From contig JBGVQK010000086.1 in NCBI GenBank assembly GCA_045127455.1, positions 488-64,487 on the forward strand: a stretch of 64,000 nucleotides of DNA. The letters are read 5' to 3'. This DNA comes from Eubacteriales bacterium (lineage in GTDB: Bacteria; Bacillota; Clostridia; Oscillospirales; CAG-272). Positions 12,306-27,729 of this stretch are shown here, in pieces. How positions within the stretch are numbered: the stretch's first letter is position 1; each line of letters opens with the position of its first letter. The notes beneath the pieces are model-generated. The model saw nothing but the letters and a program-made list of their open reading frames with translations, made no database searches and was not told the DNA's origin. Position numbers and translations under genes: made by a program.

Positions 12306-12328
12306 GCCCCCGCGCATAGCGCGGGGGC
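12306..12328 (-). terminator. terminator after the ABC ATPase gene
   Basis: 10-bp GC stem gcccccgcgc-ata-gcgcgggggc 17 nt beyond the stop at 12345. Short U-run on the minus strand. Confidence 0.6.
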
Positions 12329-12344: not shown

Positions 12345-13469
12345 TTAAACGAGCAGGTTCTTTTGGGTTTCGGGATCGAAGAAATGCATTACCTTACCCT
12401 CAAAGGTTACGTAAATGGTGTTGCCATATACGAGAGCCTTGCGCTCTTCATCATCGAGAGATACGGTGGGAATGCGAACGATCAGTCTGTCGCCGTTTTC
12501 TTCAACCACGTGCAGGTGCAGCTCACTACCCATCATTTCGTTTACAACGATCTTGCAAGGAATTGCACCGGGGTTGTTTGCGTTGCTCAGAGTGAAGTGC
12601 TCGGGACGTACGCCGAGAATGACCTCGCCGCCTGCAACGCCCTTTGCCTTGAGCATTTCTGCCTTCTTGCCGGTAACGGCAATCTTTGCGCCGTAAGGTG
12701 TTACGTAGTAGTTGCCACCCTCGCAAACCAGGTTGGTCTTAAAGGTGTTCATTTTAGGAGCACCGATAAACTCTGCAACAAAGAGGTTGATAGGCATATC
12801 GAATACTTCGGTAGGTGTGCCAACCTGTTGAATGAAGCCGTCCTTCATAATAACGATACGGTCACCAAGGGTCATAGCCTCGGTTTGGTCGTGTGTTACG
12901 TAAATAAAGGTGGTGTCGATCTTTTGACGGAGCAGAATGATCTCAGCTCTCATCTGGTTTCTCAGCTTTGCATCGAGGTTCGAGAGCGGTTCGTCCATAA
13001 GGAATACCTTGCTATCACGAACCATTGCACGACCGATTGCAACACGCTGTCTCTGACCGCCGGAAAGTGCACGGGGCTTACGGGTAAGATACTCGGTAAT
13101 ACCCAGAATTTCAGCAGCCTTGGTTACTTTTTCATAAACCTCTTCCTGAGGAGCCTTTTTGAGACGAAGGCTGAATGCCATGTTCTCAAACACGGTCAGG
13201 TGAGGATAGAGTGCATAGTTTTGGAATACCATTGCGATGTTACGGTCACGAGGTTGCAGATCGTTTACAACCACGCCGTCGATTTCAATGGTACCGCCAC
13301 TGATGTCCTCAAGACCTGCGATCATACGCAGAGTGGTGGATTTACCGCAGCCCGAAGGGCCTACGAATACGATAAATTCCTTATCGGCAATATCAAGGTT
13401 GAAGTTGTCAACCGCTACTGTGTCCTTGCCGTAGACTTTCTTTACGTTTGTTAACTTTAATGTAGCCAT
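12345..13469 (-). CDS. sugar ABC transporter ATP-binding protein (MalK/MsmK/UgpC type)
   Basis: Walker A GPSGCGKST, LSGGQRQRVAIGRA, FLMDEPLSNLD, and a C-terminal regulatory (TOBE-like) domain. Confidence 0.92.
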   Translation of the reverse strand: MATLKLTNVKKVYGKDTVAVDNFNLDIADKEFIVFVGPSGCGKSTTLRMIAGLEDISGGTIEIDGVVVNDLQPRDRNIAMVFQNYALYPHLTVFENMAFSLRLKKAPQEEVYEKVTKAAEILGITEYLTRKPRALSGGQRQRVAIGRAMVRDSKVFLMDEPLSNLDAKLRNQMRAEIILLRQKIDTTFIYVTHDQTEAMTLGDRIVIMKDGFIQQVGTPTEVFDMPINLFVAEFIGAPKMNTFKTNLVCEGGNYYVTPYGAKIAVTGKKAEMLKAKGVAGGEVILGVRPEHFTLSNANNPGAIPCKIVVNEMMGSELHLHVVEENGDRLIVRIPTVSLDDEERKALVYGNTIYVTFEGKVMHFFDPETQKNLLV

Positions 13470-13481
13470 AATATTCTCCCC

Positions 13482-14369
13482 TTATCCTTTAACTGCGCCG
13501 CCGGTAACACCCTCAACGTAGTACTTCTGCAAAAGCAGGAATACCGTTACAACAGGAATTGCTACAATTACGCCCGCGGCACAAAACATCGTATAGTGTG
13601 TGTTCAAATTTGTTTTTGAGAGCCACTCGTACATACCCACGGCAACGTTCATAGCCTGGCTGTTTTCGTGAATAATGTAGCTTGCAAGCATAAAGTCACC
13701 CCAAGGTGCCATAAAGCCCATCAGGATGGTGTAAATGATGATAGGCTTGGACAGAGGCATGATGACCTTGTAGAACACCTGCCAACGCGTAGCGCCGTCC
13801 ACTCTTGCCGCCTCGTCAAGGCTCTTTGGAATGGTATCAAAGAAGCCCTTGGAAACGTAGTAGCCCATACCACTGCTTGCACAGTATACGATGATAAGCC
13901 CGAGGGGGGCCATTTCTTTAATCAATCCAAAATCTGCGAATACCTTGTAGATCAGGATCATGGTGAGGAATCCCGGGAACATTCCCAAGATCAGCATAGA
14001 GTTCATTAAAAACTTTCTGCCCTTGAAGCGCAAACGGGAGAGCGTGTAGCTCATCGTAAGCACGAAGAAGGTTTGCAGGAATGCGGTTGCAATGCCCATA
14101 ATTGCTGTGTTCTTGAACCAAAGCAAGAAGTCGGTCTCTTTAAAGAGACGGATGTAATGGTCAAAGCCAAATTGCTTCGGGAACAAATAGCCGGTCTGCA
14201 TTTTGGTCTCTGCCTTAAAGGACTCAAGCACGATGCCTACAAACGGGAACAGCCAAACAACAGTCATAACCACGAGAACGATGTAAATGATCGTGTTGCT
14301 GATGCGTCTGCTTGCCTTTGCGCCCATGCTCTTGCGTTGCAGCTTTTTCATATCATTGTTCTTCATCAC
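13482..14369 (-). CDS. carbohydrate ABC transporter permease (MalG-like)
   Basis: EAA loop LDEAARVDGATRWQVFYKVIMP; six hydrophobic segments. Confidence 0.88.
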   Translation of the reverse strand: MMKNNDMKKLQRKSMGAKASRRISNTIIYIVLVVMTVVWLFPFVGIVLESFKAETKMQTGYLFPKQFGFDHYIRLFKETDFLLWFKNTAIMGIATAFLQTFFVLTMSYTLSRLRFKGRKFLMNSMLILGMFPGFLTMILIYKVFADFGLIKEMAPLGLIIVYCASSGMGYYVSKGFFDTIPKSLDEAARVDGATRWQVFYKVIMPLSKPIIIYTILMGFMAPWGDFMLASYIIHENSQAMNVAVGMYEWLSKTNLNTHYTMFCAAGVIVAIPVVTVFLLLQKYYVEGVTGGAVKG

Positions 14370-15940
14370 TTATAATCCTCCTCGTTTTTAGTAGACGGAA
14401 TGACGTTATAAACGATCAAGGACAAGATCGCAACAACCAAGAATACCAAAATACCTACGATAGACGCCATATAGTACTTGGATTCGGTACTGCCAAGCGT
14501 CATCTTGAACAACCACGTTACAAGCAAGTCGGTGTGACCTACCGATGCACCACCGGGAGTACCGAGTTCGGTATTGAGCGGGTTACCGCCGGTGAGAAGA
14601 TAGATAACGTTAAAGTTGTTCAGGTTGCCTACAAAGTTGGTCAACAGGTAAGGACCCGTGACGAACAGCATATAAGGCAGTGTGATCTTTGTAAACTGCT
14701 GAACCGAGCTTGCACCGTCAATGCGTGCGGACTCGTAAAGATCGTTGGGGATGTTCATCAAAATACCCGTAGCCATGAGCATGATGTAAGGAATACCGAT
14801 CCAGATATTGATCACGATCAAGAGGATCTTTGCAACAACGGGAGAATCCCACAGAGATACAAAATTATTGTCAACGCGCCAATCGTGAATGAACGGGATC
14901 TGCTCCAAAATGGAACCGATAATACCCGAGGTATCAAAGAGCTTGGAAACGTAAAGCAGGGATACAAACTGCGGAATTGCAATGGTCATAACCAAAACAG
15001 TTCTCCAGAACTTTTTGATCTTAATGCCCTTTTTGTTGATCATAATTGCAACGAACATACCAAGGAAGTAGTTGGAAAAGGTTGCAAAGAAGGACCACAT
15101 CAAGGTCCACGCAAGGATCTCACCAAAAGCAAGACCCATACCGCCCTTTCCAAAGTCGAAGAGCTCGTTGAAGTGTTCAAGTCCTACCCAGCTGAACAGG
15201 TTGGAGTAACCGTCGTTTGAAGCATCGTAGCTTGTGAAAGCAACGAGAACCATAAAAATGATAGGCAGAACAGTAAACGCAAGAATACCAACGATAGAAG
15301 GGGTGAGCAGCGTTTTGTGGAATTGGTCGTCCAAAAGAGATTTCAAGTCATCCTTGCCGCTCTTGATCTTTTTGCCCTTTGCGGTAATATCCATACAAAT
15401 GCGGCATTGCTTAACCTGCATTCTCCAGGTTGCAATAAAGGCAATGATGAAGATAAAGCTCAAGAGACCGTAAAGCATAACCTTTACAGAGTCATCACCG
15501 TCTACCCAATAGTCGGTATCGAGGATCTCGTTGTATTGGAAGCCGCCCTGAACCGTACCAACAGTTTCGCCTGTTTGGAACCAGTTACCCTTGCCGATCC
15601 AATAAATACCGCCGCTGGGAACAAGCATATAAACGATGAAAATGATCTCAAACAAAAGGAACAGAATTCCGCGTGCGATCTGTCCGTAATAGAAGTTACC
15701 AAAGCCAAAAATGAGGAACGAAAGCTTAACAGCCCAGTTACCTTTTGTAAAGGTGGTAATGATATCAACCACCTCGTTCTTAATTGCACGGCCGCAGGAT
15801 TTGAAGAATTCAAGAATGGAAATACCAATGCCCTTGAACCAAAGCGGAATTGCAAAGAAGAACATTTTCAGCTTATAAAGAAAAGCCTGAAATTTATTCA
15901 GCTTTAAATACTCTAAATCTGTTAATCTTTTCATAATCAA
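14366..15940 (-). CDS. carbohydrate ABC transporter permease (MalF/GanP-like, long N-terminal extension)
   Basis: EAA loop YESARIDGASSVQQFTKITLP. 4-nt overlap with the downstream permease. Confidence 0.88.
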   Translation of the reverse strand: MIMKRLTDLEYLKLNKFQAFLYKLKMFFFAIPLWFKGIGISILEFFKSCGRAIKNEVVDIITTFTKGNWAVKLSFLIFGFGNFYYGQIARGILFLLFEIIFIVYMLVPSGGIYWIGKGNWFQTGETVGTVQGGFQYNEILDTDYWVDGDDSVKVMLYGLLSFIFIIAFIATWRMQVKQCRICMDITAKGKKIKSGKDDLKSLLDDQFHKTLLTPSIVGILAFTVLPIIFMVLVAFTSYDASNDGYSNLFSWVGLEHFNELFDFGKGGMGLAFGEILAWTLMWSFFATFSNYFLGMFVAIMINKKGIKIKKFWRTVLVMTIAIPQFVSLLYVSKLFDTSGIIGSILEQIPFIHDWRVDNNFVSLWDSPVVAKILLIVINIWIGIPYIMLMATGILMNIPNDLYESARIDGASSVQQFTKITLPYMLFVTGPYLLTNFVGNLNNFNVIYLLTGGNPLNTELGTPGGASVGHTDLLVTWLFKMTLGSTESKYYMASIVGILVFLVVAILSLIVYNVIPSTKNEEDYK

Positions 15941-15974
15941 AATATAAAACGAGTTTATACTCCTTTTTGTATTG

Positions 15975-16077
15975 AAAAGGCATTGTTAGCCGACGTACAA
16001 AAGACAGCTGTCGTCCTTGCATATCGGCTAACAATGCCTTTTTTGTGAGAGTTGGGGGAGCCGTTGGCTCCCCCAAC
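15975..16077 (-). promoter_or_regulatory. two strong stem-loops between the binding-protein and permease genes (intra-operon attenuator or mRNA stabiliser)
   Basis: 19-bp stem aaaaggcattgttagccga / tcggctaacaatgcctttt (15975-16042, 30-nt loop containing the palindrome gacagctgtc). 12-bp stem gttgggggagcc / ggctcccccaac (16051-16077). Confidence 0.6.
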
Positions 16078-16107
16078 CTAGGGTTGTATGTTGTTTAATC
16101 GAGTAGA

Positions 16108-17670
16108 TTAGTTAGCAGGAATCAGGTTGATAACTGCAGTGGTATCCTCGTTGATTACGAGTTGGATGTAGTAGGTACCAGCTTCTGCTACCTTGTAGTT
16201 AGGCTTATTGCTGAGAGGAATGGACTTATCAGCGTTAGCGGTGTTGTCACCGTAAGCGGTCTTCCAGTCCATACCAAGACGAACCTTGAACTCTTCGCCA
16301 CCTGCAAAGGTGAAAGCTTCCTTGGTTGTCCAAGTGCCCTTAGGATCTTCCTTCATTTCGAAGTCGGTATCCCAGGTTGTGCCCTTAACAGCACCGATAA
16401 CGGTGTAGGATTTTCTTTGCTCGGGAGTAAGGCTTACAAACTTATCGCAAGCTGCCTTGTAGTCATCAAGACCCTTTTGGAGCTCTGCTTCGTTTGTTGC
16501 GTTCTTAGCTACTGCGCCAAGGAGCTTAGCGGTATCCCAGAATACGCCTGCAATGTTACCTTGAGCGGTTGCGTATGCGTTCTGCTTAGCAAGAGCTGCG
16601 AGAGAAGCGTTAGCTTGAACTGCATCAGATGCTTGAACTGCGAGGTTAGAGGGACCCCATTGGAAGGAGTCGAATCTTTGCTTTTGGCAAGCTTCGCCGG
16701 TGAGGTATTGAGCGAGGAGAGAAAGAACAGCGCCTCTCTTAGCGTCGGTTTGGGGCTTAACACCCATCAGCTTGTTACCGGAGTAAGAGCCGAGGTGGTA
16801 GGACTTGCCATCAACGGTGAAGGAAGGAAGATCGGTTACACCGAGGTTTTCGCCAAAGTGAGTGTCAGCTGCCTCTGCGTTCCAGATACCGGTAACGATA
16901 ACGCCTGCATCGGTGAAGATATCAGCGTTGGAATCGTATGCGGGGGACTTAGCGAGCTTTTCCATACCCTTCATTGCGATCAGACCGTTTGCAGATGCAA
17001 AGGTATCATCACAAGAAACGAATTCGCCGGCTTCGTTGGTAGTCCAGTTGGAGTGACAACCGGTTGCAAAGAAGAATGCAGCGGTGTACCAAGCGTTCTC
17101 GAGAGCGAAACGGAACTTCTTGCCGTTCTCTTCGCAAGCCTTAATGAGGTCTTCGAGACTCTCAGCCTCTTCAGCAGAGATGATGCTGGTGTCGTAGTAC
17201 ATGTAGTAGCCGTTATCGCTGGTCATAGGATAAGCATAGATGGTGCCGCCTACGGAAGCTGCGCCAACGGAACCCTTATCGTTGTTAGCGGTAATGGTAG
17301 CAGCAGCGTTCTTACCGGGAGCCAACAGAGCGGATGCTTGAACCAAGCGAGCGAGCTGGTCCTGTGCGAAGCAGTAAATGTCGGGAGCGGTTGCTACGTC
17401 TGCAATAACCTTGGAGCCTGCGTCAGCCTCGGTAACGCCTTCAATTTCAGCGTTGATGATGATGCCGGGGTTAGCAGCTTCAAATGCGTCGATCTGAGCC
17501 TTGAATTGGTCAGCAACGCCTTCTTTTTCGGAGACCCACATGGTAATGTTGTAAGTACCGCTGAGGTCTTCGCCATTGTTTTGTTCGGGGGTCTTGGGTG
17601 TGCAAGCTGCGAAGCAAGCTACGAGCATAAGAGCCGCCAGAACAAGAGCCAGAATTTTACTCATTTTCAT
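16108..17670 (-). CDS. ABC transporter substrate-binding lipoprotein (MalE/CycB-like) with an extra C-terminal beta-sandwich-like domain
   Basis: Lipobox LVACFAAC; RBS AGGAGG-N8-ATG. The SBP family 1 body is followed by about 100 aa: YTVIGAVKGTTWDTDFEMKEDPKGTWTTKEAFTFAGGEEFKVRLGMDWKTAYG. Confidence 0.85.
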   Translation of the reverse strand: MKMSKILALVLAALMLVACFAACTPKTPEQNNGEDLSGTYNITMWVSEKEGVADQFKAQIDAFEAANPGIIINAEIEGVTEADAGSKVIADVATAPDIYCFAQDQLARLVQASALLAPGKNAAATITANNDKGSVGAASVGGTIYAYPMTSDNGYYMYYDTSIISAEEAESLEDLIKACEENGKKFRFALENAWYTAAFFFATGCHSNWTTNEAGEFVSCDDTFASANGLIAMKGMEKLAKSPAYDSNADIFTDAGVIVTGIWNAEAADTHFGENLGVTDLPSFTVDGKSYHLGSYSGNKLMGVKPQTDAKRGAVLSLLAQYLTGEACQKQRFDSFQWGPSNLAVQASDAVQANASLAALAKQNAYATAQGNIAGVFWDTAKLLGAVAKNATNEAELQKGLDDYKAACDKFVSLTPEQRKSYTVIGAVKGTTWDTDFEMKEDPKGTWTTKEAFTFAGGEEFKVRLGMDWKTAYGDNTANADKSIPLSNKPNYKVAEAGTYYIQLVINEDTTAVINLIPAN

Positions 17671-17720: not shown

Positions 17721-17749
17721 ATTATATCACTTTTGCACATATTTGTCAA
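17721..17749 (-). promoter_or_regulatory. sigma-A promoter of the ABC importer operon
   Basis: The minus strand reads TTGACA (17744-17749), 17 nt, TGaTATAAT (17721-17726). The palindrome acgcttttgcgt (17701-17712) sits just downstream. Confidence 0.7.
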
Positions 17750-17844: not shown

Positions 17845-18951
17845 TTATTCTACACAAAAAGTGTCAAAGGCGGGGAGTTTTCTTCCATTATAATCAAAAA
17901 GGCATTGGTTTGCCCACTCGTTTGCGGTGGACTTTCCTTCCTCTTTAATATAGGTCTGCCCTGCGGGGGATGCCCAACAGATGCCCTCACCCGGCAGCCA
18001 CAAGGGCTCCCAATAAACGGCTGCTTCAATACCGTTCTCGCGCGCTCTTGTCAAAAGGTCACGCAAGAAGTCTGCTTGCCCGTTTGGCGTGATGGGATAT
18101 TTTTCAGAAAGCTCAGGCACGTTTGCACGGTCGGCATCAATCACCAGTCGGCTCTCCTTGCCGTCAAGCACGTAAGCCTTTGTGGTAAAGCCATAGCCGA
18201 TCTCCACAAGCATCATGCGCTTGCCAAAGCGGCGGCAAGCCGCAAGATTGGCAAAGAGCTCATCGGGCGTGCCGTGCCAATAGGGGTAATAGGAAGCACC
18301 GATAATGTCATAATCAATACCTGCCTCCTGCATTTTGGAGAAAAATTCCTGATAAACAGCCGCATCGTTGCTGCGCTCAAGGTGCAGAATGATGCCTGCC
18401 TCAGGCAAAATCTCGCGGCAAGCGCGACAGCCCGCAGCGATCAGGCGGCAAAGGTTTTGGTAATTCCCTCTCTCACCGCTCTCAGCTTCAGTCAATCGCC
18501 CTACTGGCCAAAGCATACCGTTAGTGATCTCGTTGCCTACTTGAATAAAGGTAGGCGCAACATCCTCGGCACAGGCTTTTTGCAGGCAGGTTTTTGTAAA
18601 GGTATACACTGCCTCTTCCATCTCGTCAATACCAAACGATGCCCACGCCTTGGGGATCATTTGCTTGCCCGGGTCTGCCCAAAAGTCGCTGTAATGAAAG
18701 TCCAGCATCAGGCTATATCCTTTGGCTTTTGCCAATTTTGCAAGACGGACGTAGTGGTCGATATCGCAGCTTCCTGCCAAATAAGGCGTTCCGTCGGGTG
18801 CGTGCGGATCGTTCCATACGCGAATGCGCATACAGCTCACGCCGTTTGCGCGCAGAGCATCTAAGGGGTCGATTTGTACGTCACCGTCAAAATAGCGCGC
18901 ACCGTGCTCCAATTCCTCCAAATACGTGGAAATGTCTACACCGAGGATCAT
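17845..18951 (-). CDS. GH53 endo-beta-1,4-galactanase-family protein without a signal peptide
   Basis: RIRVWNDP, DFHYSDFWADPGKQ, VQVGNEITNG (acid/base Glu), MLVEIGYGF (nucleophile Glu). The N-terminus MILGVDISTY has no hydrophobic leader. Confidence 0.88.
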   Translation of the reverse strand: MILGVDISTYLEELEHGARYFDGDVQIDPLDALRANGVSCMRIRVWNDPHAPDGTPYLAGSCDIDHYVRLAKLAKAKGYSLMLDFHYSDFWADPGKQMIPKAWASFGIDEMEEAVYTFTKTCLQKACAEDVAPTFIQVGNEITNGMLWPVGRLTEAESGERGNYQNLCRLIAAGCRACREILPEAGIILHLERSNDAAVYQEFFSKMQEAGIDYDIIGASYYPYWHGTPDELFANLAACRRFGKRMMLVEIGYGFTTKAYVLDGKESRLVIDADRANVPELSEKYPITPNGQADFLRDLLTRARENGIEAAVYWEPLWLPGEGICWASPAGQTYIKEEGKSTANEWANQCLFDYNGRKLPAFDTFCVE

Positions 18952-19208
18952 TGCTCTCCCCCCTTGTGCGGCTCAAAACGAATGGGTTGGTTGTCCTCGC
19001 CAAAATCGACAACGCGCAGCTTCATTGCGCGGTAGCGATACCTTGCAGCCTCGTTGAGCTCGAGGACGCGTGCCTCCGCACCGGAAAATCCGCAACGCAG
19101 GCAATAGTATTCGCCCTTTTCTTCATCAAAGAACATATCAATGTCGATATCCCTCATAAAGCAGGAGGGACAACGGTAATTCAGTTTGCCTTTTGTAGCT
19201 TGAGCCAT
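18948..19208 (-). CDS. 86-aa zinc-ribbon protein, unknown function
   Basis: CPSC...CLRC motif pair. It overlaps the upstream gene by 28 nt and the downstream GH53 by 4 nt, so it is probably translationally coupled. Confidence 0.6.
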   Translation of the reverse strand: MAQATKGKLNYRCPSCFMRDIDIDMFFDEEKGEYYCLRCGFSGAEARVLELNEAARYRYRAMKLRVVDFGEDNQPIRFEPHKGGEQ

Positions 19209-21010
19209 GTCTTTACTCCTCCCTTTTGAACAGTTTTGCGAAGTGCCAAACGGTAAACGGGCGAGAAGGCAATGCCCTCCTCCACCTCGGCTTGGTCGTT
19301 GTCGCCGCTCATTTCGATGAGCGTGAGCACTGCGGGAACGGTCACGCGCGCACTTGCGGCATTCTCTTTTGTGATCTTGCGACCAAGATAAGAATACTGC
19401 ATCTGTTCGCCATCGACCGCGAGCGTCAAATCGCTCATATCCGCTTGGTATTCGGTGGTACCGAACGCACCGGTAAAATATTCCTCAAAGGTGACCTTTT
19501 CGTTACCAATGTCGTTGAGAATACGGCGCTCGGTAATAATTTTGCCCTCTCCCTCTACAATGGTAAAGACCGATTGCACGACCAGCTCAAGTCCACCCAA
19601 ATTCAGGGTAACGGGGTCGGTTATAAGGCTGACGCCATCCTCGTTTTTTTGATAGGTTGCCATTGTGCGGCAGAGGCAAAGATCGGCACTCTCCCCTCTT
19701 GCGCTGACGCGGCAGGATTTGATGGTTCCCGCGCCTGCATAGTGGGTGAAGAAGCCTGCGCGGTAGTTGATTTGGATAAGGTAAGGATAAGATGCATCAT
19801 ACACGTTCTCGGTGCCGATGCCGGTTCTTTGCGGAATACGTGCAACGTAGGGGCGAAGATCGATCATAGCACCGCCCTGATTGAAGTCGAAGCAGGTGCG
19901 AAGCGAGGGATCGGCATACCAAAAGTAAGACTTGTTGCTGCCGTAAAGAATATCCTTCCACAAAGCGCACTCTCCGCGCTTGTAGTCTGTGTGGCTTGCG
20001 CGATAATAGTCGGCAAATTCGCTCATAGTCATATCGGTAAGCTTACCCTCTGCCTTGAGCTTGCCGTAGTACTTCATACCGTCGTCATAAGACTTTGCCA
20101 AAAGCTCGTAGGGGGCTTCCCAACGTCCGCGGCGGTTGAGCCAACCGGGACCTACAAACATCATGTTGTAGCTGTAACCGTCGTTGTATTTTGCAAGATG
20201 ACGGTATTGGTCGATGAGATTGTAAAGATAGGGATACTCGTAATTTTCGCCATCCTTATAGTAGATCATACCGCGCAATACGTTTTGCGGATGTGTACCA
20301 AAGTTGGAACCGTTGCCGTCAAAGCAAGCCATCAGATCGCGGGAAAGGTGCGGAATGGCAACGATACCCGAGTCATCCTCGGCGTCGGATGCGGGACAGT
20401 GAGAATTGACCTTAGAAGGGATCCAAGGATTCCAAGGTCCGCCATCCATAAAGGTATACCAGGAATTGTTGCAGGTATGGTAAGCCTTGGGGCCTTCTTC
20501 CCAGCAGGTGGCAACCGCGCATTTTACCGAAGGATACTTCTTTTTGATATAGTTGATGGTGTAAGCATCTAAAAAATAACTGCTTGTGGAAGCGGGATAA
20601 AAGCCGAATTTTTCGTAGAATTTTCCAAATACGTCGTCAACGATCTCTTCCTTTCGTTTGTCGTCAAACATCCAAATGCAAAAGTCCTCGGTTTTGTATT
20701 TTTCCTTAAACTCTGGGCAAGGAAGCCCCAAAAGTGAGAGACCGATCTCGTCACCGTACTTTTCATTTGCTTGCTTTGCCATCTCAATAATAACGTCGGA
20801 GAAAAGAGATGCGTAGGTGATTTGAATGGTGGTCTTCAGACCGTATTTATGCGCCGTATCCTGCTGGAAACGGAAAATATCCAACGATTCGTCGCGTACA
20901 TCCTTGCCCTTCCCGAGCGCCTTTTCGGCATACTCGGGAGAAAGCTCGGGACGGTGAATAATGTTTACAATAAGTTTATCGTTCATAAAAGCCTCGCTTT
21001 GATAGGTCAC
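19181..21010 (-). CDS. 609-aa cytoplasmic protein of unrecognised family (candidate glycan-active enzyme)
   Basis: Long ORF in operon position, with a 4-nt overlap with the GH13 stop. No signal peptide. No motif I can assign to a GH, GT or CE family. Confidence 0.75.
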   Translation of the reverse strand: MTYQSEAFMNDKLIVNIIHRPELSPEYAEKALGKGKDVRDESLDIFRFQQDTAHKYGLKTTIQITYASLFSDVIIEMAKQANEKYGDEIGLSLLGLPCPEFKEKYKTEDFCIWMFDDKRKEEIVDDVFGKFYEKFGFYPASTSSYFLDAYTINYIKKKYPSVKCAVATCWEEGPKAYHTCNNSWYTFMDGGPWNPWIPSKVNSHCPASDAEDDSGIVAIPHLSRDLMACFDGNGSNFGTHPQNVLRGMIYYKDGENYEYPYLYNLIDQYRHLAKYNDGYSYNMMFVGPGWLNRRGRWEAPYELLAKSYDDGMKYYGKLKAEGKLTDMTMSEFADYYRASHTDYKRGECALWKDILYGSNKSYFWYADPSLRTCFDFNQGGAMIDLRPYVARIPQRTGIGTENVYDASYPYLIQINYRAGFFTHYAGAGTIKSCRVSARGESADLCLCRTMATYQKNEDGVSLITDPVTLNLGGLELVVQSVFTIVEGEGKIITERRILNDIGNEKVTFEEYFTGAFGTTEYQADMSDLTLAVDGEQMQYSYLGRKITKENAASARVTVPAVLTLIEMSGDNDQAEVEEGIAFSPVYRLALRKTVQKGGVKTWLKLQKAN

Positions 21011-22677
21011 TCAAGAATAACGCTTGTTTGCGGTGCAATGGTAAGAACTGTGCCCTCGAGCGTTGCCGCGCCTGTGCCGATCACGTCAAGGATAGCCGTA
21101 AAGCTATAACCTGCAAGATCGCTGCAGCCTGCAAGGTCAACGGAGAGCTCCTCGGTGGACGTGTTGTGGAACAAGCCGAGCTTTTGTTCACCGTGTGTGA
21201 TCAAAAATCCGCCCAAATTCTTTTCACCGCAGGTAATGGAATCGTAGGTTCCGCGTGCGATCGCCTCGTGCTTGTGGCGAATGGCAAGCAGCTTGCAGTA
21301 ATAGTTGTAAAGACTGTTGGGGTCCTCGAGCTGATCTGCCACTGTGGTGCTGATCTGCTTTGAGGGGCTGTAGGTAGAGCCAATGGGATTGCCTACCGTA
21401 TCGCCGTCTCCCCACAGCATGGCAAGGCGACGGTTGGCATCGGTATTGGCACTGCCACGGGAGCCGCGCATACCGATCTCTTCACCGTAATAAATGGTGG
21501 GAGAGCCGGGGCTGAGCAAATAGAGGTTTGCAGCCATACGCATATAGTTTTCGGTAACGAACGTGCCTGCAATGCGATCCATATCGTGGTTGGAAAGGAA
21601 AGACATCGACATACCATTGGGGTTGTTTTCCAAAACCTTCTTTTGATAGGACCCAATGTAGTTTGTAAAGGTAGAAATGGAAGAGCGTCCCTTTGCGGCA
21701 GTTGCTGCAATACCTTCTGCTTGAGACATTGCAAAGTTAAAGCAGTTCATAGCGCTGTAATAATCCAGAATTTCGCTCTCACCCGACCAGCATTCGCCAA
21801 CACAGTAGATATCGGGATAGTCCTTTTGGAGCTCGCCCATATACCATTCCCAGAACTCTACCGATTTTGCGGTATCACCAAAGTAGATATACTTAATAGC
21901 ATCAAAACGGAAGCCATCGACACCAAGCTCCATATAATACTTGGCGACCTTGAGCATTTCCTCACGAACGGTAGGGTTATCAAAATTCAGCTCGGGCATA
22001 TCCCCCGAGAAGTTGCACTCATACCACGCGTCAACGCCGTCGATCTTTTGATACGTGCGGCCGCTCACCTTTTCATCATTGGTAACGCAGGTGTAAAAAT
22101 CATAATATGGGTTGGTGTTGTCACGCTCCATACGTGCTTGCTTAAACTGCAAAAACCACTCGTGACGGCTTGAGGTGTGGTTGATGGCAAGGTCAAGAAT
22201 GAGCTTGACGTTGCGTGCTTCACACAGCTCTGCCAGCTCACGCAGATCATCCATATCGCCAAATTTCGAGTCGATATCATAATAGCTGATGGCATCGTAC
22301 TTGTGATAAGATGGCGAAGCGAAGATGGGAGAGAGCCAGATGCCCTGCACGCCCAAGCTTTTGCCCGAATTGATATTTCCGTCGTTGAGATAATCAAAAC
22401 GGTTGATGACACCGCGCAAGTCGCCAATGGTGTCACCGTTGGAATCTGAAAAAGAACCTACAAACACCTGGTAAAATGTGCGGTAATTATCATTGATAGG
22501 ATCTAACATAGGCGGTAGTGCTTCTTCCTTGGGAGACTTTGTAAAATGATTGATCAGTACCACCGCAGAAACAACGATAGCCACTGTTAAAACCAATGAT
22601 ACTGCAGCTATGGCAACCTTCTTTTTGTTTTGGAAAAAGCTTGCCAGGGCTTGTTTGAATGCTTTTGATTTTGCCAT
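21007..22677 (-). CDS. GH13 alpha-amylase-family enzyme, N-terminal membrane anchor
   Basis: TM AIAAVSLVLTVAIVVSAVVLI. GH13 regions DLAINHTS, GVDGFRFDAIKY, VGECW, FLSNHD. Confidence 0.9.
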   Translation of the reverse strand: MAKSKAFKQALASFFQNKKKVAIAAVSLVLTVAIVVSAVVLINHFTKSPKEEALPPMLDPINDNYRTFYQVFVGSFSDSNGDTIGDLRGVINRFDYLNDGNINSGKSLGVQGIWLSPIFASPSYHKYDAISYYDIDSKFGDMDDLRELAELCEARNVKLILDLAINHTSSRHEWFLQFKQARMERDNTNPYYDFYTCVTNDEKVSGRTYQKIDGVDAWYECNFSGDMPELNFDNPTVREEMLKVAKYYMELGVDGFRFDAIKYIYFGDTAKSVEFWEWYMGELQKDYPDIYCVGECWSGESEILDYYSAMNCFNFAMSQAEGIAATAAKGRSSISTFTNYIGSYQKKVLENNPNGMSMSFLSNHDMDRIAGTFVTENYMRMAANLYLLSPGSPTIYYGEEIGMRGSRGSANTDANRRLAMLWGDGDTVGNPIGSTYSPSKQISTTVADQLEDPNSLYNYYCKLLAIRHKHEAIARGTYDSITCGEKNLGGFLITHGEQKLGLFHNTSTEELSVDLAGCSDLAGYSFTAILDVIGTGAATLEGTVLTIAPQTSVILE

Positions 22678-22687
22678 ATCTTACCTC

Positions 22688-24727
22688 TTATTCTTTGACC
22701 GAATTAAAGCGTGCATCGTCGATCTTGCCCCACGCATTGGGGCCTGCACACTTGACGTAAATGCCAACAACGATGGTATCTCCCTCGTTGTAGACAATAC
22801 CGTTAACGCTTGCGGTGTGCCACTCGTTGTAAACTGTGATCTCTGTTTCACCGCGATAAACGATCTCTCCATTGACCTTTACGTAGGCGTAAATTTCCGT
22901 ATCGCCGCCGTCACCGCCCATAATGGAGATGGAATAGTTATATTTGTTGCCGGCAGTCAGCCCTGTCAGCTCTTGCTCAAGGGTGAACTCTACTGCATTG
23001 GCAGCTGCTCCCCAGAAATGGTAGTGTTTGGTACCTGTAATGGAGTCGGTGACCTTATCCTCTACGTGGAACTCATCAAAGGTACCGATCTTGTTTGCCG
23101 TCCAACCGGTATCCCCCTCTTCAAAGCTCCAATTCTTCAAAAAGTTGTATTCCTCCATCGAAACGTAGCAGCGCGCGGTCATGCCGCCTGCAGTTCCAAC
23201 AATATCATACTTTTTAACACCGCCCGCCTTCATAGCGGCAATGTCTACATTGTGCCATACAACGTCAATTACCTTTTTGGAGTTATCCAGCATAATGGCT
23301 TTGACAGTTGTGGGCATAACGACGTCTCCGTTCAAGTCGAAGATAAGGTTGGTATCCTCGATAGCATCTGCCTTGTTTTCAACAACGTTGCCCTCTTTAA
23401 CAAGTGCAAACACCTTGAGCGACTCAAGCGCGTGTCCGGTTGCATCAAAGAATGCTTGGTTATCAACAGCGCAGCCGCCATACCACTGCCCTGCATCGTC
23501 GGGATCGTAGTCACCTGCATAGGAGCTTGCCCAGCCGGAGCCGTTCTTTTCCCACAGTGCAAGGTTTTCTTCATAGCTCTCGCCACCTGCAGGGATCCAA
23601 GTGCCTTCCCAATAGAACACACCGATACCGTCGGTCATATCGTTTACGGTAACGTCGATAACGTCACGAACGAGGTTTGCCTGACCTTGTACGGTGAAGG
23701 GATAGTTTTTAACGATTCCGCCACCCTCACCAATGGTGTTGCCGTAAAAATCGTTATCGGCAGCAGTAAAGGCATAGGAGGTTTCGGCAACCATTACCTT
23801 TTTGCCGTATTTTGCGCTTACACGATTCAAAACCGCTGCAAGGTTTTCATACGTGCCGTGCCAGAAGGGATAGTAAGATGATGCGAATACGTCGTAATCA
23901 ACACCGTAGTAATCCAGGTTTGCACTGTAGCTCTCGTAGTTGGTCACCTTTTCGGGGTTCGCAAAGTGAACGGCAATAAGCGCATTGGGGCAAACCTCGC
24001 GTACTGCGCGAGAGCCTGCGCTCATCAGCTTGGTGATCTTTGCCCAACCGCCCGTCTTTGTGCTGCTTTCGCCACACATAGCACCGTTGGTCTCGTTACC
24101 AACCTGCACCATACCAACGTCAACGCCTGCAGCTACCAGCTTTTCAAGGCACTCTTTGGTGTAGGTGTAGAGGGCTTCGCTCTTTTCATCAATGCTCATA
24201 TTCTTCCAAGCCTTGGGGACCATTTGCTTTGCAGGGTCTGCCCAAAAGTCGGAATAGTGGAAGTTTACAAGCAGCTTCATACCGTATTCGGTAGCGCGCT
24301 TACCAATAGCAATGGCGTTTTCGATATCGCAGTTACCGCCGCCGTATCCCTTGTCGTTCTCGTCAAAGGGATCGTTCCAAACGCGTACACGGATGTAATT
24401 GATGCCGTTTTCGGAGAGAATTTGATAAACGTCCTTTTCGTTGCCGTCGTGGTCGTAATACTTTACGCCGCCCGCCTCTAGGGAAGGAACACAGGAAGCA
24501 TCCATGCCCATAATAAAATCATCTGGCAGGTTTTCTACTTTGGCAACGTACAAAGAGTCAGATGTAACGTTGACGTCAATGGCATTGGGGCGCCAATCTT
24601 TGTTTTTTCCGTCGGTCTCGTTGCCTTTGGGAGTGCACCCACCAAGCAAAAATGCACCCGCGAGGACAGCGGCCGCCAAAATGGCGGCCACTGCTGCGGT
24701 GCTGTATCGTTTTAGAATGTTTGACAT
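22688..24727 (-). CDS. extracellular GH53 endo-beta-1,4-galactanase lipoprotein with C-terminal Ig-like and carbohydrate-binding-like domains
   Basis: Lipobox FLLGGC. RVRVWNDP, NFHYSDFWADPAKQ, VQVGNETNG, VMVAETSYAF. About 270 extra C-terminal residues. Confidence 0.88.
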   Translation of the reverse strand: MSNILKRYSTAAVAAILAAAVLAGAFLLGGCTPKGNETDGKNKDWRPNAIDVNVTSDSLYVAKVENLPDDFIMGMDASCVPSLEAGGVKYYDHDGNEKDVYQILSENGINYIRVRVWNDPFDENDKGYGGGNCDIENAIAIGKRATEYGMKLLVNFHYSDFWADPAKQMVPKAWKNMSIDEKSEALYTYTKECLEKLVAAGVDVGMVQVGNETNGAMCGESSTKTGGWAKITKLMSAGSRAVREVCPNALIAVHFANPEKVTNYESYSANLDYYGVDYDVFASSYYPFWHGTYENLAAVLNRVSAKYGKKVMVAETSYAFTAADNDFYGNTIGEGGGIVKNYPFTVQGQANLVRDVIDVTVNDMTDGIGVFYWEGTWIPAGGESYEENLALWEKNGSGWASSYAGDYDPDDAGQWYGGCAVDNQAFFDATGHALESLKVFALVKEGNVVENKADAIEDTNLIFDLNGDVVMPTTVKAIMLDNSKKVIDVVWHNVDIAAMKAGGVKKYDIVGTAGGMTARCYVSMEEYNFLKNWSFEEGDTGWTANKIGTFDEFHVEDKVTDSITGTKHYHFWGAAANAVEFTLEQELTGLTAGNKYNYSISIMGGDGGDTEIYAYVKVNGEIVYRGETEITVYNEWHTASVNGIVYNEGDTIVVGIYVKCAGPNAWGKIDDARFNSVKE

Positions 24728-24800: not shown

Positions 24801-27473
24801 TTATTTTACAAGTGCGTCATTCACGTAAACGTGGATGCCCAAGCTTTCAACGGTAAAGTTGCCGCTAACGTGTGCAAAGGGCTCGCTGCCTGCTTTTTCT
24901 GCATTTGCGATCAGGTTCCATTCACCTGTAAGCGCGTAGGGAATGTCAGTGCGATTGGGGTTGATGATGACAACCGCTTCCCCACCGTTGCCATCCTGCA
25001 TTCTGAGAACGACTGCACCACCGGTGAGCTCGGTAGACTCGATTGCTACGTTGGACGTGAAAATGCTGTAAGACTTGCGCATTTCGATCAAGCCCTTGTA
25101 GTAGAGCATGGTCTCATACTCGCTGTTGCCCTCTTTGAGAACAGACCAATCAATGTTGTTGATAGCATCGCTGGACTTATAGCTGTTTTCGTCACCGTCC
25201 TTGGTACGCAGCATTTCCTCACCTGCTTGCCAGAAAGGAGTGCCCTGCGAGATCATCAAAATAGCTGCCCCCAGCTTGTTCATACGGTTGCGGATATCCT
25301 CACTATCGTTGGGATTGGAGAGCAAAAGCTTATCCCACAGAGTATTGTTATCGTGAGCACTCATATAGTTGATAACCATATTGTTCTTTACGAACCAGCC
25401 TGCACTAAAGCCTTCGCCACCGCGAATACCAAACAAAACCTTTTCAAGATTTTGTCTGCCCGCGCCACTGATATATCCTTGAGAGGTTGCATCGAACACA
25501 CTACCCTTCAGACCGTCGCGGATTGCATCGTTGAATACGGCAATGCCGCCAATCGCATTGTTAGAGGGTACGATCTCGGAAATATTGCTTTGGTTTGCTT
25601 GCTTGCTGCCGTCAATGGTGGCGCCCATCGTCCAGCCTTCACCGTAGATCAGGGCTTGGGGATTGATGGTGTGAACTGCGGTTTCAACCTCTTGCATGGT
25701 TCCAAGGTCGTGCAGACCCATCAGGTCAAAGCGCAAGCCGTCAAGCTTGTATTCCTTCGTCCAATAAGCGGTAGACTCTACCATAAACTTGCCGTACATA
25801 TAGCGCTCGGAAGCGGTATCGTTTCCGCATCCGCTTGCGGAGCTGTTTGCACCCGTAGCGGTGTATCTGTAGTAGTAATAAGGAACGATGCGGTTAAAGG
25901 AGCTGTTTGCATCATAGGTGTGGTTGTATACAACATCCATTACAACGCCGATGCCTGCGGCGTGCAGAGCCTGCACCATTTGCTTGTATTCCTTGATACG
26001 AACTGCACCGTTGAAGGGGTCGGTGGAGTAGCTGCCCTCGGGAACGTTATAGTTTTTGGGATCGTAGCCCCAGTTGAACTCGGAATCGGGATTGCTTTCG
26101 TCAACGGTTGCATAGTCGTATACGGGCAACAGATGAACGTGAGTAATGCCGAGCTGCTTGAGGTAGTCAACGCCTACGGGTTGACCGTGCTCGTTGACAA
26201 GACCTGTCTCGGTGAATGCAAGATATTTGCCCTTGTATTGGGAGGAAGCGATCTTGTTGGAGAAGTCTCTTACGTGTACTTCCCAGATGATTGCCTCGGA
26301 GTAGGAGGAAAGGTTGCTGTTCAGACCTGCTGTGTCCCAACCGTCGGGATTGGTGAGAGAGAGATCAACGACCATACCTCTGTTGCCGTTTACGCCCGCT
26401 GCTTTTGCATAGGGGTCAACAGCCTCTTGGGTTCCAACGGAGGTGGTAACGGTGTAGGTGTAATATGTACCGTGTCCGCACTCTTCGGTGTGAGACCATA
26501 CGCCCTTTTCGCCCTTGACCATTTCAACGGTCTTGTAGGCTTCTACGTCGTGCCCTGCCTCAAAGAGATTAAGCAGCACTTTGGATGCGGTGGGCGCCCA
26601 TACCTTGAAGGTGGTGTTATTGCCGTTGATATATGCACCGAGATCATCACCGTCATAGTGGAAATTCTCGGCAAAATAGTCGCTATCAAAAATATCGGTG
26701 GGAACGGCGATCTTAGAGCCAAATCCCTCGATCTCAACGCGATAGTTTTTGGAAAGATCCAACGTCTCTCCAAGCTCAATATAACCGGTAGACGCTTGTT
26801 TACCAAGTGCGGAAAGTCTGGTGATCTCAACCTCTCTGTCACCCTCGTATACCTTTACCTGACTCATATCGGAGATAAGCGTTTTGGGTGTGAGGAAGTA
26901 TCTGATTTTTGCTTGGTCTACAATACCTGCCAGAGAAAACTTCTTTATCATTTCGAGTGTTTGTCCTCCGTCATCACTTTTGAACTGATCGCCAACGCCG
27001 GGCTTGAGGTAGATAACCGTTTCTCTGCCATCCAGAATTACAAAGCGGTCTTGCTCAAAGTCCTTGGTTGCGCTGCCCCAAGAGCTGCCACCGGGCTCGG
27101 AGCAATCGCGGCGAACGATAAATCCAACCTCGCTGATGCCTTCGGGAACGTTAATAACCACTTTTGCACCGTAATTGCACTCGTGGAAAAGGTAGCCCTT
27201 GCCTGCTACGTCACCCCACCAGATCCAAACGTCACAGTTTTCGTACGCGGCGGACTTATGCGTCCAATAAATGGTGAGCTGATTATAGCCATCCTCAAGC
27301 GGCAGACGGTATTCGTCTTCCGGCATTACGTAAGGGGGCTTTGGTGTGTTATCCGGAGTGGTTTCGGGAGTGGTTTCATTGGGGTCTTGCTTATTGTGGC
27401 AGGATGTAAGTGCTACGGAGAGCATCATAACAAGCACCAGCAATAAGGAAAGAACGCGGAATGATGTTTTCAT
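24801..27473 (-). CDS. type I pullulanase (GH13) lipoprotein with N-terminal carbohydrate-binding modules
   Basis: Lipobox ALTSC. Pullulanase signature YNWGYDPKNYNVPEGSYSTDP, plus VVMDVVYNHT, LDGLRFDLMG, YGEGW, YMSAHDN. Confidence 0.92.
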   Translation of the reverse strand: MKTSFRVLSLLLVLVMMLSVALTSCHNKQDPNETTPETTPDNTPKPPYVMPEDEYRLPLEDGYNQLTIYWTHKSAAYENCDVWIWWGDVAGKGYLFHECNYGAKVVINVPEGISEVGFIVRRDCSEPGGSSWGSATKDFEQDRFVILDGRETVIYLKPGVGDQFKSDDGGQTLEMIKKFSLAGIVDQAKIRYFLTPKTLISDMSQVKVYEGDREVEITRLSALGKQASTGYIELGETLDLSKNYRVEIEGFGSKIAVPTDIFDSDYFAENFHYDGDDLGAYINGNNTTFKVWAPTASKVLLNLFEAGHDVEAYKTVEMVKGEKGVWSHTEECGHGTYYTYTVTTSVGTQEAVDPYAKAAGVNGNRGMVVDLSLTNPDGWDTAGLNSNLSSYSEAIIWEVHVRDFSNKIASSQYKGKYLAFTETGLVNEHGQPVGVDYLKQLGITHVHLLPVYDYATVDESNPDSEFNWGYDPKNYNVPEGSYSTDPFNGAVRIKEYKQMVQALHAAGIGVVMDVVYNHTYDANSSFNRIVPYYYYRYTATGANSSASGCGNDTASERYMYGKFMVESTAYWTKEYKLDGLRFDLMGLHDLGTMQEVETAVHTINPQALIYGEGWTMGATIDGSKQANQSNISEIVPSNNAIGGIAVFNDAIRDGLKGSVFDATSQGYISGAGRQNLEKVLFGIRGGEGFSAGWFVKNNMVINYMSAHDNNTLWDKLLLSNPNDSEDIRNRMNKLGAAILMISQGTPFWQAGEEMLRTKDGDENSYKSSDAINNIDWSVLKEGNSEYETMLYYKGLIEMRKSYSIFTSNVAIESTELTGGAVVLRMQDGNGGEAVVIINPNRTDIPYALTGEWNLIANAEKAGSEPFAHVSGNFTVESLGIHVYVNDALVK

Positions 27474-27556: not shown

Positions 27557-27585
27557 ATTATACTATGTTATAGTATAATTTTCAA
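27557..27585 (-). promoter_or_regulatory. sigma-A promoter upstream of the pullulanase gene
   Basis: The minus strand reads TTGAAA (27580-27585), 17 nt, TATAAT (27557-27562). Confidence 0.6.
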
Positions 27586-27698: not shown

Positions 27699-27729
27699 AA
27701 GAGCCCCGCGTAAAAAACGCAGGGCTCTT
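27699..27729 (-). terminator. terminator after the 27735 gene
   Basis: aagagccccgcg / cgcagggctctt stem followed on the minus strand by TTTTTTATAATTTTT. Confidence 0.75.

Follow-up and report, generated by a model that had tools for sequence, protein, structure and literature searches.

We analysed a 64,000-nucleotide stretch of the genome of an Eubacteriales bacterium (Clostridia, Oscillospirales, CAG-272; contig JBGVQK010000086.1), hereafter the window, and focused on X601, a minus-strand gene for a cytoplasmic protein of no named family that lies in an operon of galactan- and starch-degrading enzymes. X601 overlaps the gene for an 86-aa zinc ribbon, ZnR86, and across related loci the pair accompanies genes for endo-β-1,4-galactanases of glycoside hydrolase (GH) family GH53. 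We propose, with a probability of about 0.5, that X601 serves as catalytic subunit in a cytoplasmic glycosidase made of two proteins and acting on imported β-1,4-galacto-oligosaccharides, with ZnR86 as its small zinc-binding partner. Pectic galactan is a major dietary fibre, and the intracellular end of its breakdown in gut Firmicutes is known only from the GH42-based model of Bacillus and Bifidobacterium; the X601–ZnR pair is the most conserved unassigned component of gut Firmicutes galactan loci. Assigning its reaction would probably add a new family to CAZy, fill a hole in the metabolic models of butyrate producers of the gut, provide the DUF3863-like branch of the glycoside-hydrolase/deacetylase barrel superfamily with its first function and account for an unusual obligate zinc-ribbon subunit. 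The elements at the centre of this proposal are as follows.

19181..20986, minus strand: X601, a 601-aa cytoplasmic protein of no named family (stop codon TGA at 19181-19183, likely start codon ATG at 20986)
20987..21010, minus strand: in-frame 8-codon extension from a GTG, probably untranslated, lacking a counterpart in homologues and containing the ribosome-binding site
20992..20995, minus strand: Shine–Dalgarno sequence of X601, GAGG, 5 nt upstream of the ATG, read from the sequence
18948..19208, minus strand: ZnR86, an open reading frame (ORF) for an 86-aa zinc ribbon with four cysteines (CPSC...CLRC), overlapping the 3′ end of X601 by 28 nt and the start of the GH53 gene by 4 nt
19216..19225, minus strand: Shine–Dalgarno sequence of ZnR86, AAGGGAGGAG, inside the X601 coding sequence, read from the sequence
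17845..18951, minus strand: cytoplasmic GH53 endo-β-1,4-galactanase, 368 aa, no signal peptide (PF07745, E 7e-90, full length)

A preliminary description of this DNA had reported a 609-codon ORF at 19181..21010, and both the ORF list and the translation contain it on the minus strand when codons are counted from a GTG. The true start is almost certainly the ATG at 20986, giving 601 aa, and not the GTG at 21010, because homologues, which number in the thousands, are 598-603 aa long (query coverage 98-99%), alignments with diverse homologues begin at MNDKL and the GAGG ribosome-binding site lies 5 nt upstream of this codon. Moving the start leaves 20 nt between X601 and the stop codon of the preceding GH13 gene (21007), so the 4-nt GTGA overlap with that stop, on which the preliminary description had relied, is probably not used; the 28-nt overlap with the following gene, which it had also reported, is real. 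No signal peptide was seen when the N-terminus was read by eye, which places X601 in the cytoplasm.

The same description had overlooked that the overlapping downstream gene encodes a zinc-ribbon partner (MAQATKGKLNYRCPSC...YYCLRCGFSG...). We recovered at least 592 stretches encoding X601 relatives, using a 7-sequence alignment against one genome per species (185,579 species); all counts per locus given here refer to the best 80 of these, which are 61-95% identical to X601. A zinc-ribbon gene directly follows X601 in 77 of the 80. In each of the 64 pairs resolved by ORF calling (64/64) the overlap is exactly 28 nt, and these 28 nt encode both proteins; an AAGGAGG-type Shine–Dalgarno sequence and the ATG of the ribbon gene are kept within the X601 frame in all 64 measured loci. 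This conservation, together with the lack of a slippery heptamer, argues for synthesis of ZnR86 by translational coupling at a start codon that lies 28 nt within the 3′ end of X601. A programmed -1 frameshift fusing the two products, which the -1 frame of the ribbon and the fixed overlap had suggested, was rejected on the same grounds. P0189 and P0194, distant homologues of 671 and 676 aa, have at their C-terminus a fused CPRC...CxFCxF(S/E)G ribbon that is homologous to ZnR86, a Rosetta-stone indication that X601 and ZnR86 work together. One fused homologue comes from a Verrucomicrobiae metagenome-assembled genome (MAG). Such fusions appear to be rare, since a search restricted to this region returned only the query itself. 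AlphaFold2 modelled the body of P0189, a natural fusion, with confidence; its ribbon has a predicted local distance difference test score (pLDDT) of only 59-81, with 2 sequences covering it. X601 clades at 30-38% identity retain a partner of 62-74 aa.

To place the pair in its genomic setting, ORFs in the 80 loci were called and clustered, and clusters were named by Pfam or by eye. The modal gene order is a LacI or AraC regulator (in some loci), a solute-binding protein (SBP), MalF, MalG, X601, ZnR, a cytoplasmic GH53, then MalK and an extracellular GH53 (each variably present), often with GalK, GalT or GalE. GH53 occurs in 74/80 loci and stands directly after ZnR in 62 of the 70 with room for it, and SBP, MalF and MalG genes are each present in 59-62 of 80. 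Leloir-type genes are less frequent (GalK in 13/80, GalT in 10/80, GalE in 9/80 and GalM in 4/80, with GalM immediately preceding X601 in L031 and L045). GH13 is found in only 31/80 loci, pullulanase in 17/80 and GH77 in 11/80; on these counts the starch genes are a lineage-specific addition to the galactan locus, confined to this Oscillospirales-like lineage, and the constant link is to β-1,4-galactan. Lachnospiraceae loci are purely of the galactan/Leloir type. The conserved position of a cytoplasmic GH53 after ZnR hints at a requirement for short substrates in the partner enzyme. An intracellular endo-galactanase such as that at window positions 17845-18951 is unusual. At the genome level, the X601 family was present in 17/400 genomes of a class-level sample: 10 genomes carried the family and GH53, 7 the family only, 20 GH53 only and 362 neither (about 400 genomes; odds ratio 26, Fisher p = 2e-8, uncorrected for phylogeny). 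The link to galactan genes is therefore far tighter than the preliminary description could have known. For Roseburia faecis and R. hominis, Sheridan et al. 2016 (PMC5320581) described an arabinogalactan locus that contains three GH53 genes.

The family is large and consistently unannotated. X601 has no match in Pfam even at E<=10 and none in NCBIfam at E<=0.01, and phmmer against PDB sequences gave nothing meaningful beyond one chance match, in agreement with the earlier assessment that the protein belongs to no recognisable family and is not, by family match, a GH2/35/42 or GH13 enzyme, a phosphorylase or an esterase. A word-indexed search returned 2544 clusters at E<=0.001; every cluster with a name was a 'hypothetical protein' from MAGs of Clostridia, Oscillospiraceae or Ruminococcaceae. 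When 1.84 billion representatives were searched exhaustively with HMMER, 495 X601-family clusters (50% identity) emerged, of which 104 reached E<=1e-30. The 80 best loci belong to Oscillospiraceae, Christensenellaceae, Lachnospiraceae, Erysipelotrichaceae, Anaeroplasma and others, in most cases sampled from the gut of ruminants, rabbits, mice or humans, and the cultured carriers include the Lachnospiraceae Waltera intestinalis and W. acetigignens. Full-text searches (DUF3863, 3LM3, and galactan, GH53, zinc ribbon, new GH family or galactobiose phosphorylase) found no literature on the X601 family.

We next examined the predicted structure. An AlphaFold2 model built from 31 diverse sequences has a pLDDT of 90.7 and a predicted template-modelling (TM) score of 0.92, and resolves X601 into two domains that, with the conserved motifs, map to the window as follows.

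19982..20986, minus strand: N-terminal seven-stranded (β/α) barrel, residues 1 to ~335 (AlphaFold2 secondary structure, Foldseek, conservation)
19184..19972, minus strand: C-terminal β-sandwich, residues 339-601, a galactose-mutarotase-like supersandwich (AlphaFold2, Foldseek, conservation)
20492-20506, minus strand: CWEEG motif (E163, E164), by conservation
20336-20353, minus strand: PHLSRD motif (H213/R216/D217), by conservation
19847-19861, minus strand: DLRPY motif (D376, R378), by conservation

The modelled barrel strands are residues 4-11, 53-56, 80-84, 133-135, 156-158, 209-211 and 271-278. In Foldseek searches against the PDB the top match was 3LM3 (E 2e-16, probability 1.00, TM 0.63 on the target), followed by the GH57 4-α-glucanotransferase 1K1X/1K1W (E 3e-14 to 1e-12); GH38 α-mannosidases (7UFS, 6B9O) matched further down at TM 0.24-0.27, and deacetylase barrels of the CE4 type (3QBU, 3RXZ) at E of about 1e-6 to 1e-7 only. 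The C-terminal domain matched many galactose-mutarotase-like sandwiches as well as the C-terminal domains of GH57 and GH38. X601 thus has a GH57/GH38/DUF3863 architecture yet sits in none of these families by sequence. The preliminary description had suggested a new hydrolase or phosphorylase family; that suggestion is plausible and partly supported by the match to glycoside-hydrolase/deacetylase (β/α)7 barrels and by synteny, whereas the activity (hydrolase or phosphorylase, on a β-galactoside or another substrate) is something we infer from genomic context only. X601 probably represents a new, CAZy-type family of enzymes inside a superfamily of known fold, and its obligate zinc-ribbon partner is unusual.

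Residue conservation points to a candidate active site. Across 106 family sequences (31 diverse members and 75 orthologues), E80, E164, G165, G182, W185, R238, Y253, R363, D376, R378, G389 and P401 are invariant, and D140, E163, H213, R216, D217, N268 and W356 are kept in at least 103. The active site of barrel enzymes usually lies after the β-strands, and so, in the secondary structure of the model, do most of the conserved barrel residues: D140 follows β4, CWEEG follows β5 and PHLSRD follows β6, with E80 as the first residue of β3 by DSSP assignment. A second conserved cluster in the sandwich (R363 and DLRPY) suggests an inter-domain cleft. No histidine is invariant in the 106 sequences (some members have other residues at H11, H213 or H232), so that a CE4- or GH38-type metal site is not a feature of the family.

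Comparison with characterised and structural relatives sharpens this placement. 3LM3 is BDI_3119 of Parabacteroides distasonis, a structural-genomics 'putative glycoside hydrolase/deacetylase' assigned to Pfam DUF3863 (PF12979). It is the best structural match to the barrel part of X601 and the sole PDB entry touched by the X601-family profile, marginally (E 0.011) and in an EGGPWxPWxPSxxNxxxPA loop; 2 of 31 family members and a paralogue in the same genome match PF12979 weakly. X601 shares its fold with 3LM3 but, with ~14% identity, falls short of the DUF3863 gathering threshold (27 bits): it does not match PF12979 at any threshold, and the best of the 31 members reaches E 0.0036. 3LM3 is itself uncharacterised and thus transfers no function, and neither a zinc-ribbon partner nor a galactan context is known for it. 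The in-genome paralogue (P0122, contig C79; L002:1099-2697 and L109:4056-5654) is a remote one of 532 aa, 24-32% identical to X601 over part of its length, with a weak DUF3863 match (E 0.054, 12.7 bits); it has no adjoining zinc-ribbon gene, and its neighbour is an ABC/FtsX-type transporter gene.

The GH57 4-α-glucanotransferase of Thermococcus litoralis resembles X601 as a cytoplasmic oligosaccharide-processing enzyme of ~630 aa built from a barrel and a β-sandwich, and the X601 model has the GH57-type layout of a (β/α)7 barrel followed by a C-terminal domain. In contrast, the global TM of 1K1X to X601 is only ~0.3 with a root-mean-square deviation of ~20 Å, so the packing of the domains differs; GH57 enzymes act on α-glucans or α-galactosides, whereas the context of X601 is β-1,4-galactan, and they have no zinc-ribbon subunit. 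X601 has no match to PF03065 (GH57) even at E<=10, and membership of GH57 was rejected when hhalign of the family alignment against an alignment of eight genuine GH57 proteins from genomes gave a probability of 0.5%.

The classical β-galactosidase GanA/GalG of GH42 offers a positional counterpart. In the gan/gal operon order of Bacillus and Bifidobacterium, GanA/GalG occupies the slot between GanSPQ-type transporter genes and GH53 that X601 fills in its galactan operons; both proteins are cytoplasmic and both are linked to galK/galT/galE. The folds are unrelated, however, clan GH-A (β/α)8 in GH42 as against (β/α)7 in X601, which lacks a PF02449 match and has a second small protein. GH2, GH35 and GH42, all of clan GH-A, were rejected as families for X601 on the absence of Pfam matches, the seven-stranded barrel and top structural neighbours outside that clan. 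Three further families fared no better: CE4 deacetylase (no PF01522 match, no invariant Asp-His-His metal triad in the family), GH38 α-mannosidase (no PF01074 match, resemblance at fold level only) and GH112 galactoside phosphorylase (no PF09508 match, and no GH112 structure among the Foldseek matches listed). GH147 and GH165 are clan GH-A families, which would set X601 apart from both. Together with GH173, they are recent β-galactosidase families from gut microbiomes, found in pectin-related loci (PMC8810776). GH173 has a clan GH-A, GH30-like architecture and occurs in polysaccharide utilization loci of Bacteroidetes (PMC8810776), a description unlike the fold and mainly Firmicutes distribution of X601.

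Taken with this context, a four-step route can be proposed. The extracellular lipoprotein GH53 would cut pectic β-1,4-galactan, a GanS/MalFGK-like ABC system would bring in the oligosaccharides, the cytoplasmic GH53 would shorten them and X601–ZnR86, presumably as a physical complex, would make the terminal cleavage, most likely by exo-hydrolysis of galactobiose or galactotriose to galactose for the Leloir pathway. The reaction would take place in the cleft between the barrel and the β-sandwich, with catalysis by two of the conserved carboxylates E80, D140, E163, E164, D217 and D376. Free galactose is favoured as the product because GalK and GalM are linked to the pair and because in 70/80 loci the neighbours identified within ±10 kb include neither GH42 nor GH2.

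Several observations weigh against this proposal. The preliminary description held that the locus lacks a recognisable exo-β-galactosidase, and indeed the window operon has no GH2, GH35 or GH42 gene and the genome no GH42; the genome does, however, contain four GH2-type matches outside the operon, and these enzymes could release galactose. In the class-level sample GH42 is no rarer alongside the family, being found in 6/10 genomes with the family and GH53 and in 13/20 with GH53 only (p = 1). GH42 (8/80) or GH2 (2/80) shares the locus within ±10 kb in at least 10/80 loci, a minimum as not all unlabelled neighbours were scanned against Pfam, and GH42 does so in 4/10 class-sample genomes. Distant clades lie in non-galactan loci, beside GH36-like and GH88/105 genes or with no sugar genes at all. 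The characterised enzymes with an X601-type barrel (GH57, GH38) all cleave α-linkages rather than β-galactosides, catalytic residues are not transferable from GH57 given the hhalign result, and the literature searches turned up no characterised member of the X601 family.

The GH42 data bear directly on the idea, put forward in the preliminary description, that X601 fills the gap left by a missing β-galactosidase. They weaken it, and non-orthologous displacement of GH42 by X601 is not supported at the genome level. In the four class-sample genomes (G230:C1, G613:C35, G666:C2 and G791:C3) the GH42 lies 5-7 kb from X601 and belongs to a divergent clade, scoring 198-251 bits to PF02449 as against ~500 for typical GH42. 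Since both genes occupy the same loci, GH42 and X601 appear complementary there and not alternative, which argues that X601 does something that GH42 does not.

The distant clades suggest that substrates differ from one X601 clade to another, mostly still within sugar loci. In the seven genomes that have the family but lack GH53, the members are at 32-38% identity; two of these lie by GH36-like (Raffinose_syn) and GH88/GH105-type genes and the others by ABC transporter and sensor kinase genes or housekeeping genes, and for distant representatives the contigs were mostly too short to show context. Members at 32-34% identity stand beside such GH36-like (Raffinose_syn) and GH88/GH105-type genes in L125:9019-12753 and L128:5921-10917. 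L128 has a zinc-ribbon ORF right after the X gene, L125 holds only a 65-aa opposite-strand ORF at the partner position, and two pairs of glycyl-radical enzyme and activase genes adjoin in L125. These two loci look like a different glycan pathway.

A bolder form of the proposal can be put forward, although we consider it rather unlikely: X601 and ZnR86 would found a new CAZy family, the first β-galactoside enzyme with a (β/α)7 barrel and a glycosidase of two obligate subunits, one of them a zinc ribbon or rubredoxin-like, that might work as a β-1,4-galactobiose or oligosaccharide phosphorylase or by other non-classical chemistry. If true, it would explain both the coexistence with GH42 and the constant cytoplasmic endo-GH53.

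Phosphorolysis also merits consideration in its own right, and we regard it as a doubtful but serious alternative. X601–ZnR86 would convert β-1,4-galactobiose or short galacto-oligosaccharides supplied by the cytoplasmic GH53, plus phosphate, to galactose-1-phosphate, saving ATP in a strict anaerobe. An adjoining endo-GH53 fits a partner limited to short substrates, a restriction with analogues in cellobiose and mannobiose phosphorylases; R216, R238, R363 and R378, all invariant or nearly so, could bind phosphate; the presence of GH42 in the same locus would be less puzzling if the two enzymes had different chemistry; some loci have a linked GalT; and no β-1,4-galactobiose phosphorylase was found in the searchable literature. 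However, no phosphorylase is known to have the X601 fold, arginines are common as sugar ligands, and GalK, together with GalM directly upstream of X601 in two loci, indicates free β-galactose as the product.

We think it improbable that X601 instead strips something other than backbone galactose, such as an arabinosyl branch, the Gal-Rha stub of rhamnogalacturonan I or an ester, to clear the way for GH53 or GH42. Coexistence with GH42 or GH2 in some lineages would fit such a role, as would the GH88/GH105-type and GH36-like genes near distant clades, apparently part of other pectin or galactoside loci, and the deacetylases (3QBU, 3RXZ) in the fold superfamily. Most loci (70/80 by the neighbours identified), though, have only GH53, the pair and a transporter, so that side-group removal would leave them with no identified galactose-releasing enzyme, and the residues expected of a CE4 Asp-His-His triad are not invariant, H11, H213 and H232 each being lost in some members.

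The structural likeness to the T. litoralis enzyme, the best full-length analogue of known function and one with the same two-domain layout, raises the idea of a disproportionating '4-β-galactanotransferase' that would reshuffle imported galacto-oligosaccharides much as GH57 and GH77 4-α-glucanotransferases do. The missing sequence relationship to GH57 and the differing domain packing make it unlikely, and a transferase alone would give no monosaccharide.

Very unlikely, in our view, is a non-enzymatic role as a cytoplasmic sugar sensor, scaffold or regulator with a dead glycosidase fold, the ribbon binding nucleic acid or protein. The window locus has no LacI or AraC regulator, zinc ribbons are often nucleic-acid binders and the only Pfam hint for ZnR86 is to a TFIIB-type ribbon (E 0.002, below the cut-off), but most related loci do have LacI or AraC regulators, the invariant carboxylates, aromatics and arginines form an active-site pattern, and the pair sits within the structural-gene block. 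Last, service to the starch half of the operon as a GH57-like cytoplasmic α-glucan enzyme on imported maltodextrins, for which the upstream GH13 and pullulanase genes, the MalEFGK-like transporter and the fold could be cited, is rejected on synteny and scarcely credible given the GH53-dominated locus counts, the purely galactan/Leloir loci of Lachnospiraceae and the GanS-like SBP; the α-glucosidase function that the preliminary description had entertained is unlikely with it.

The remaining elements of the operon and of the adjacent importer unit are listed below.

21007..22677, minus strand: membrane-anchored GH13 α-amylase-family enzyme, 556 aa (PF00128, E 3e-76; N-terminal hydrophobic anchor)
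22688..24727, minus strand: extracellular lipoprotein GH53 galactanase with an Ig-like domain, 679 aa (Pfam; LLGGC lipobox)
24801..27473, minus strand: lipoprotein type I pullulanase, 890 aa, first gene of the unit (TIGR02104, 651 bits, above the cut-off; lipobox)
27557-27585: promoter-like site 5′ of the pullulanase gene (scan)
27699-27729: terminator upstream of the pullulanase gene (scan)
12345..17670, minus strand: GanS/MalEFGK-like ABC importer (Pfam, NCBIfam)
16108-17670, minus strand: GanS-like SBP with a lipobox (NCBIfam; N-terminus read)
14366-15940, minus strand: MalF-like permease (Pfam, NCBIfam)
13482-14369, minus strand: MalG-like permease (Pfam, NCBIfam)
12345-13469, minus strand: ATPase (Pfam, NCBIfam)
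17721-17749, minus strand: consensus sigma-70 promoter of the SBP gene, 12/12 match with an extended -10 TG (scan)
12306-12328: terminator of the importer unit (scan)

A promoter and terminator scan found no strong internal terminator between the pullulanase gene and the cytoplasmic GH53 gene, which places X601 within a single transcription unit of pullulanase, GH53, GH13, X601, ZnR86 and GH53, in which consecutive genes, pullulanase through the last GH53, are spaced -28 to 73 nt apart. The importer forms its own transcription unit downstream of this enzyme block, since a consensus promoter precedes the binding-protein gene. The GH13 enzyme carries an N-terminal transmembrane anchor, KKKVAIAAVSLVLTVAIVVSAVVLI, and is therefore an extracytoplasmic amylase-type enzyme and not a cytoplasmic α-glucosidase. 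A 448-codon ORF runs antisense to X601 at window positions 19226-20572 (plus strand), and similar 'mirror' ORFs stand opposite most long genes of the window; these are by-products of codon usage, not genes.

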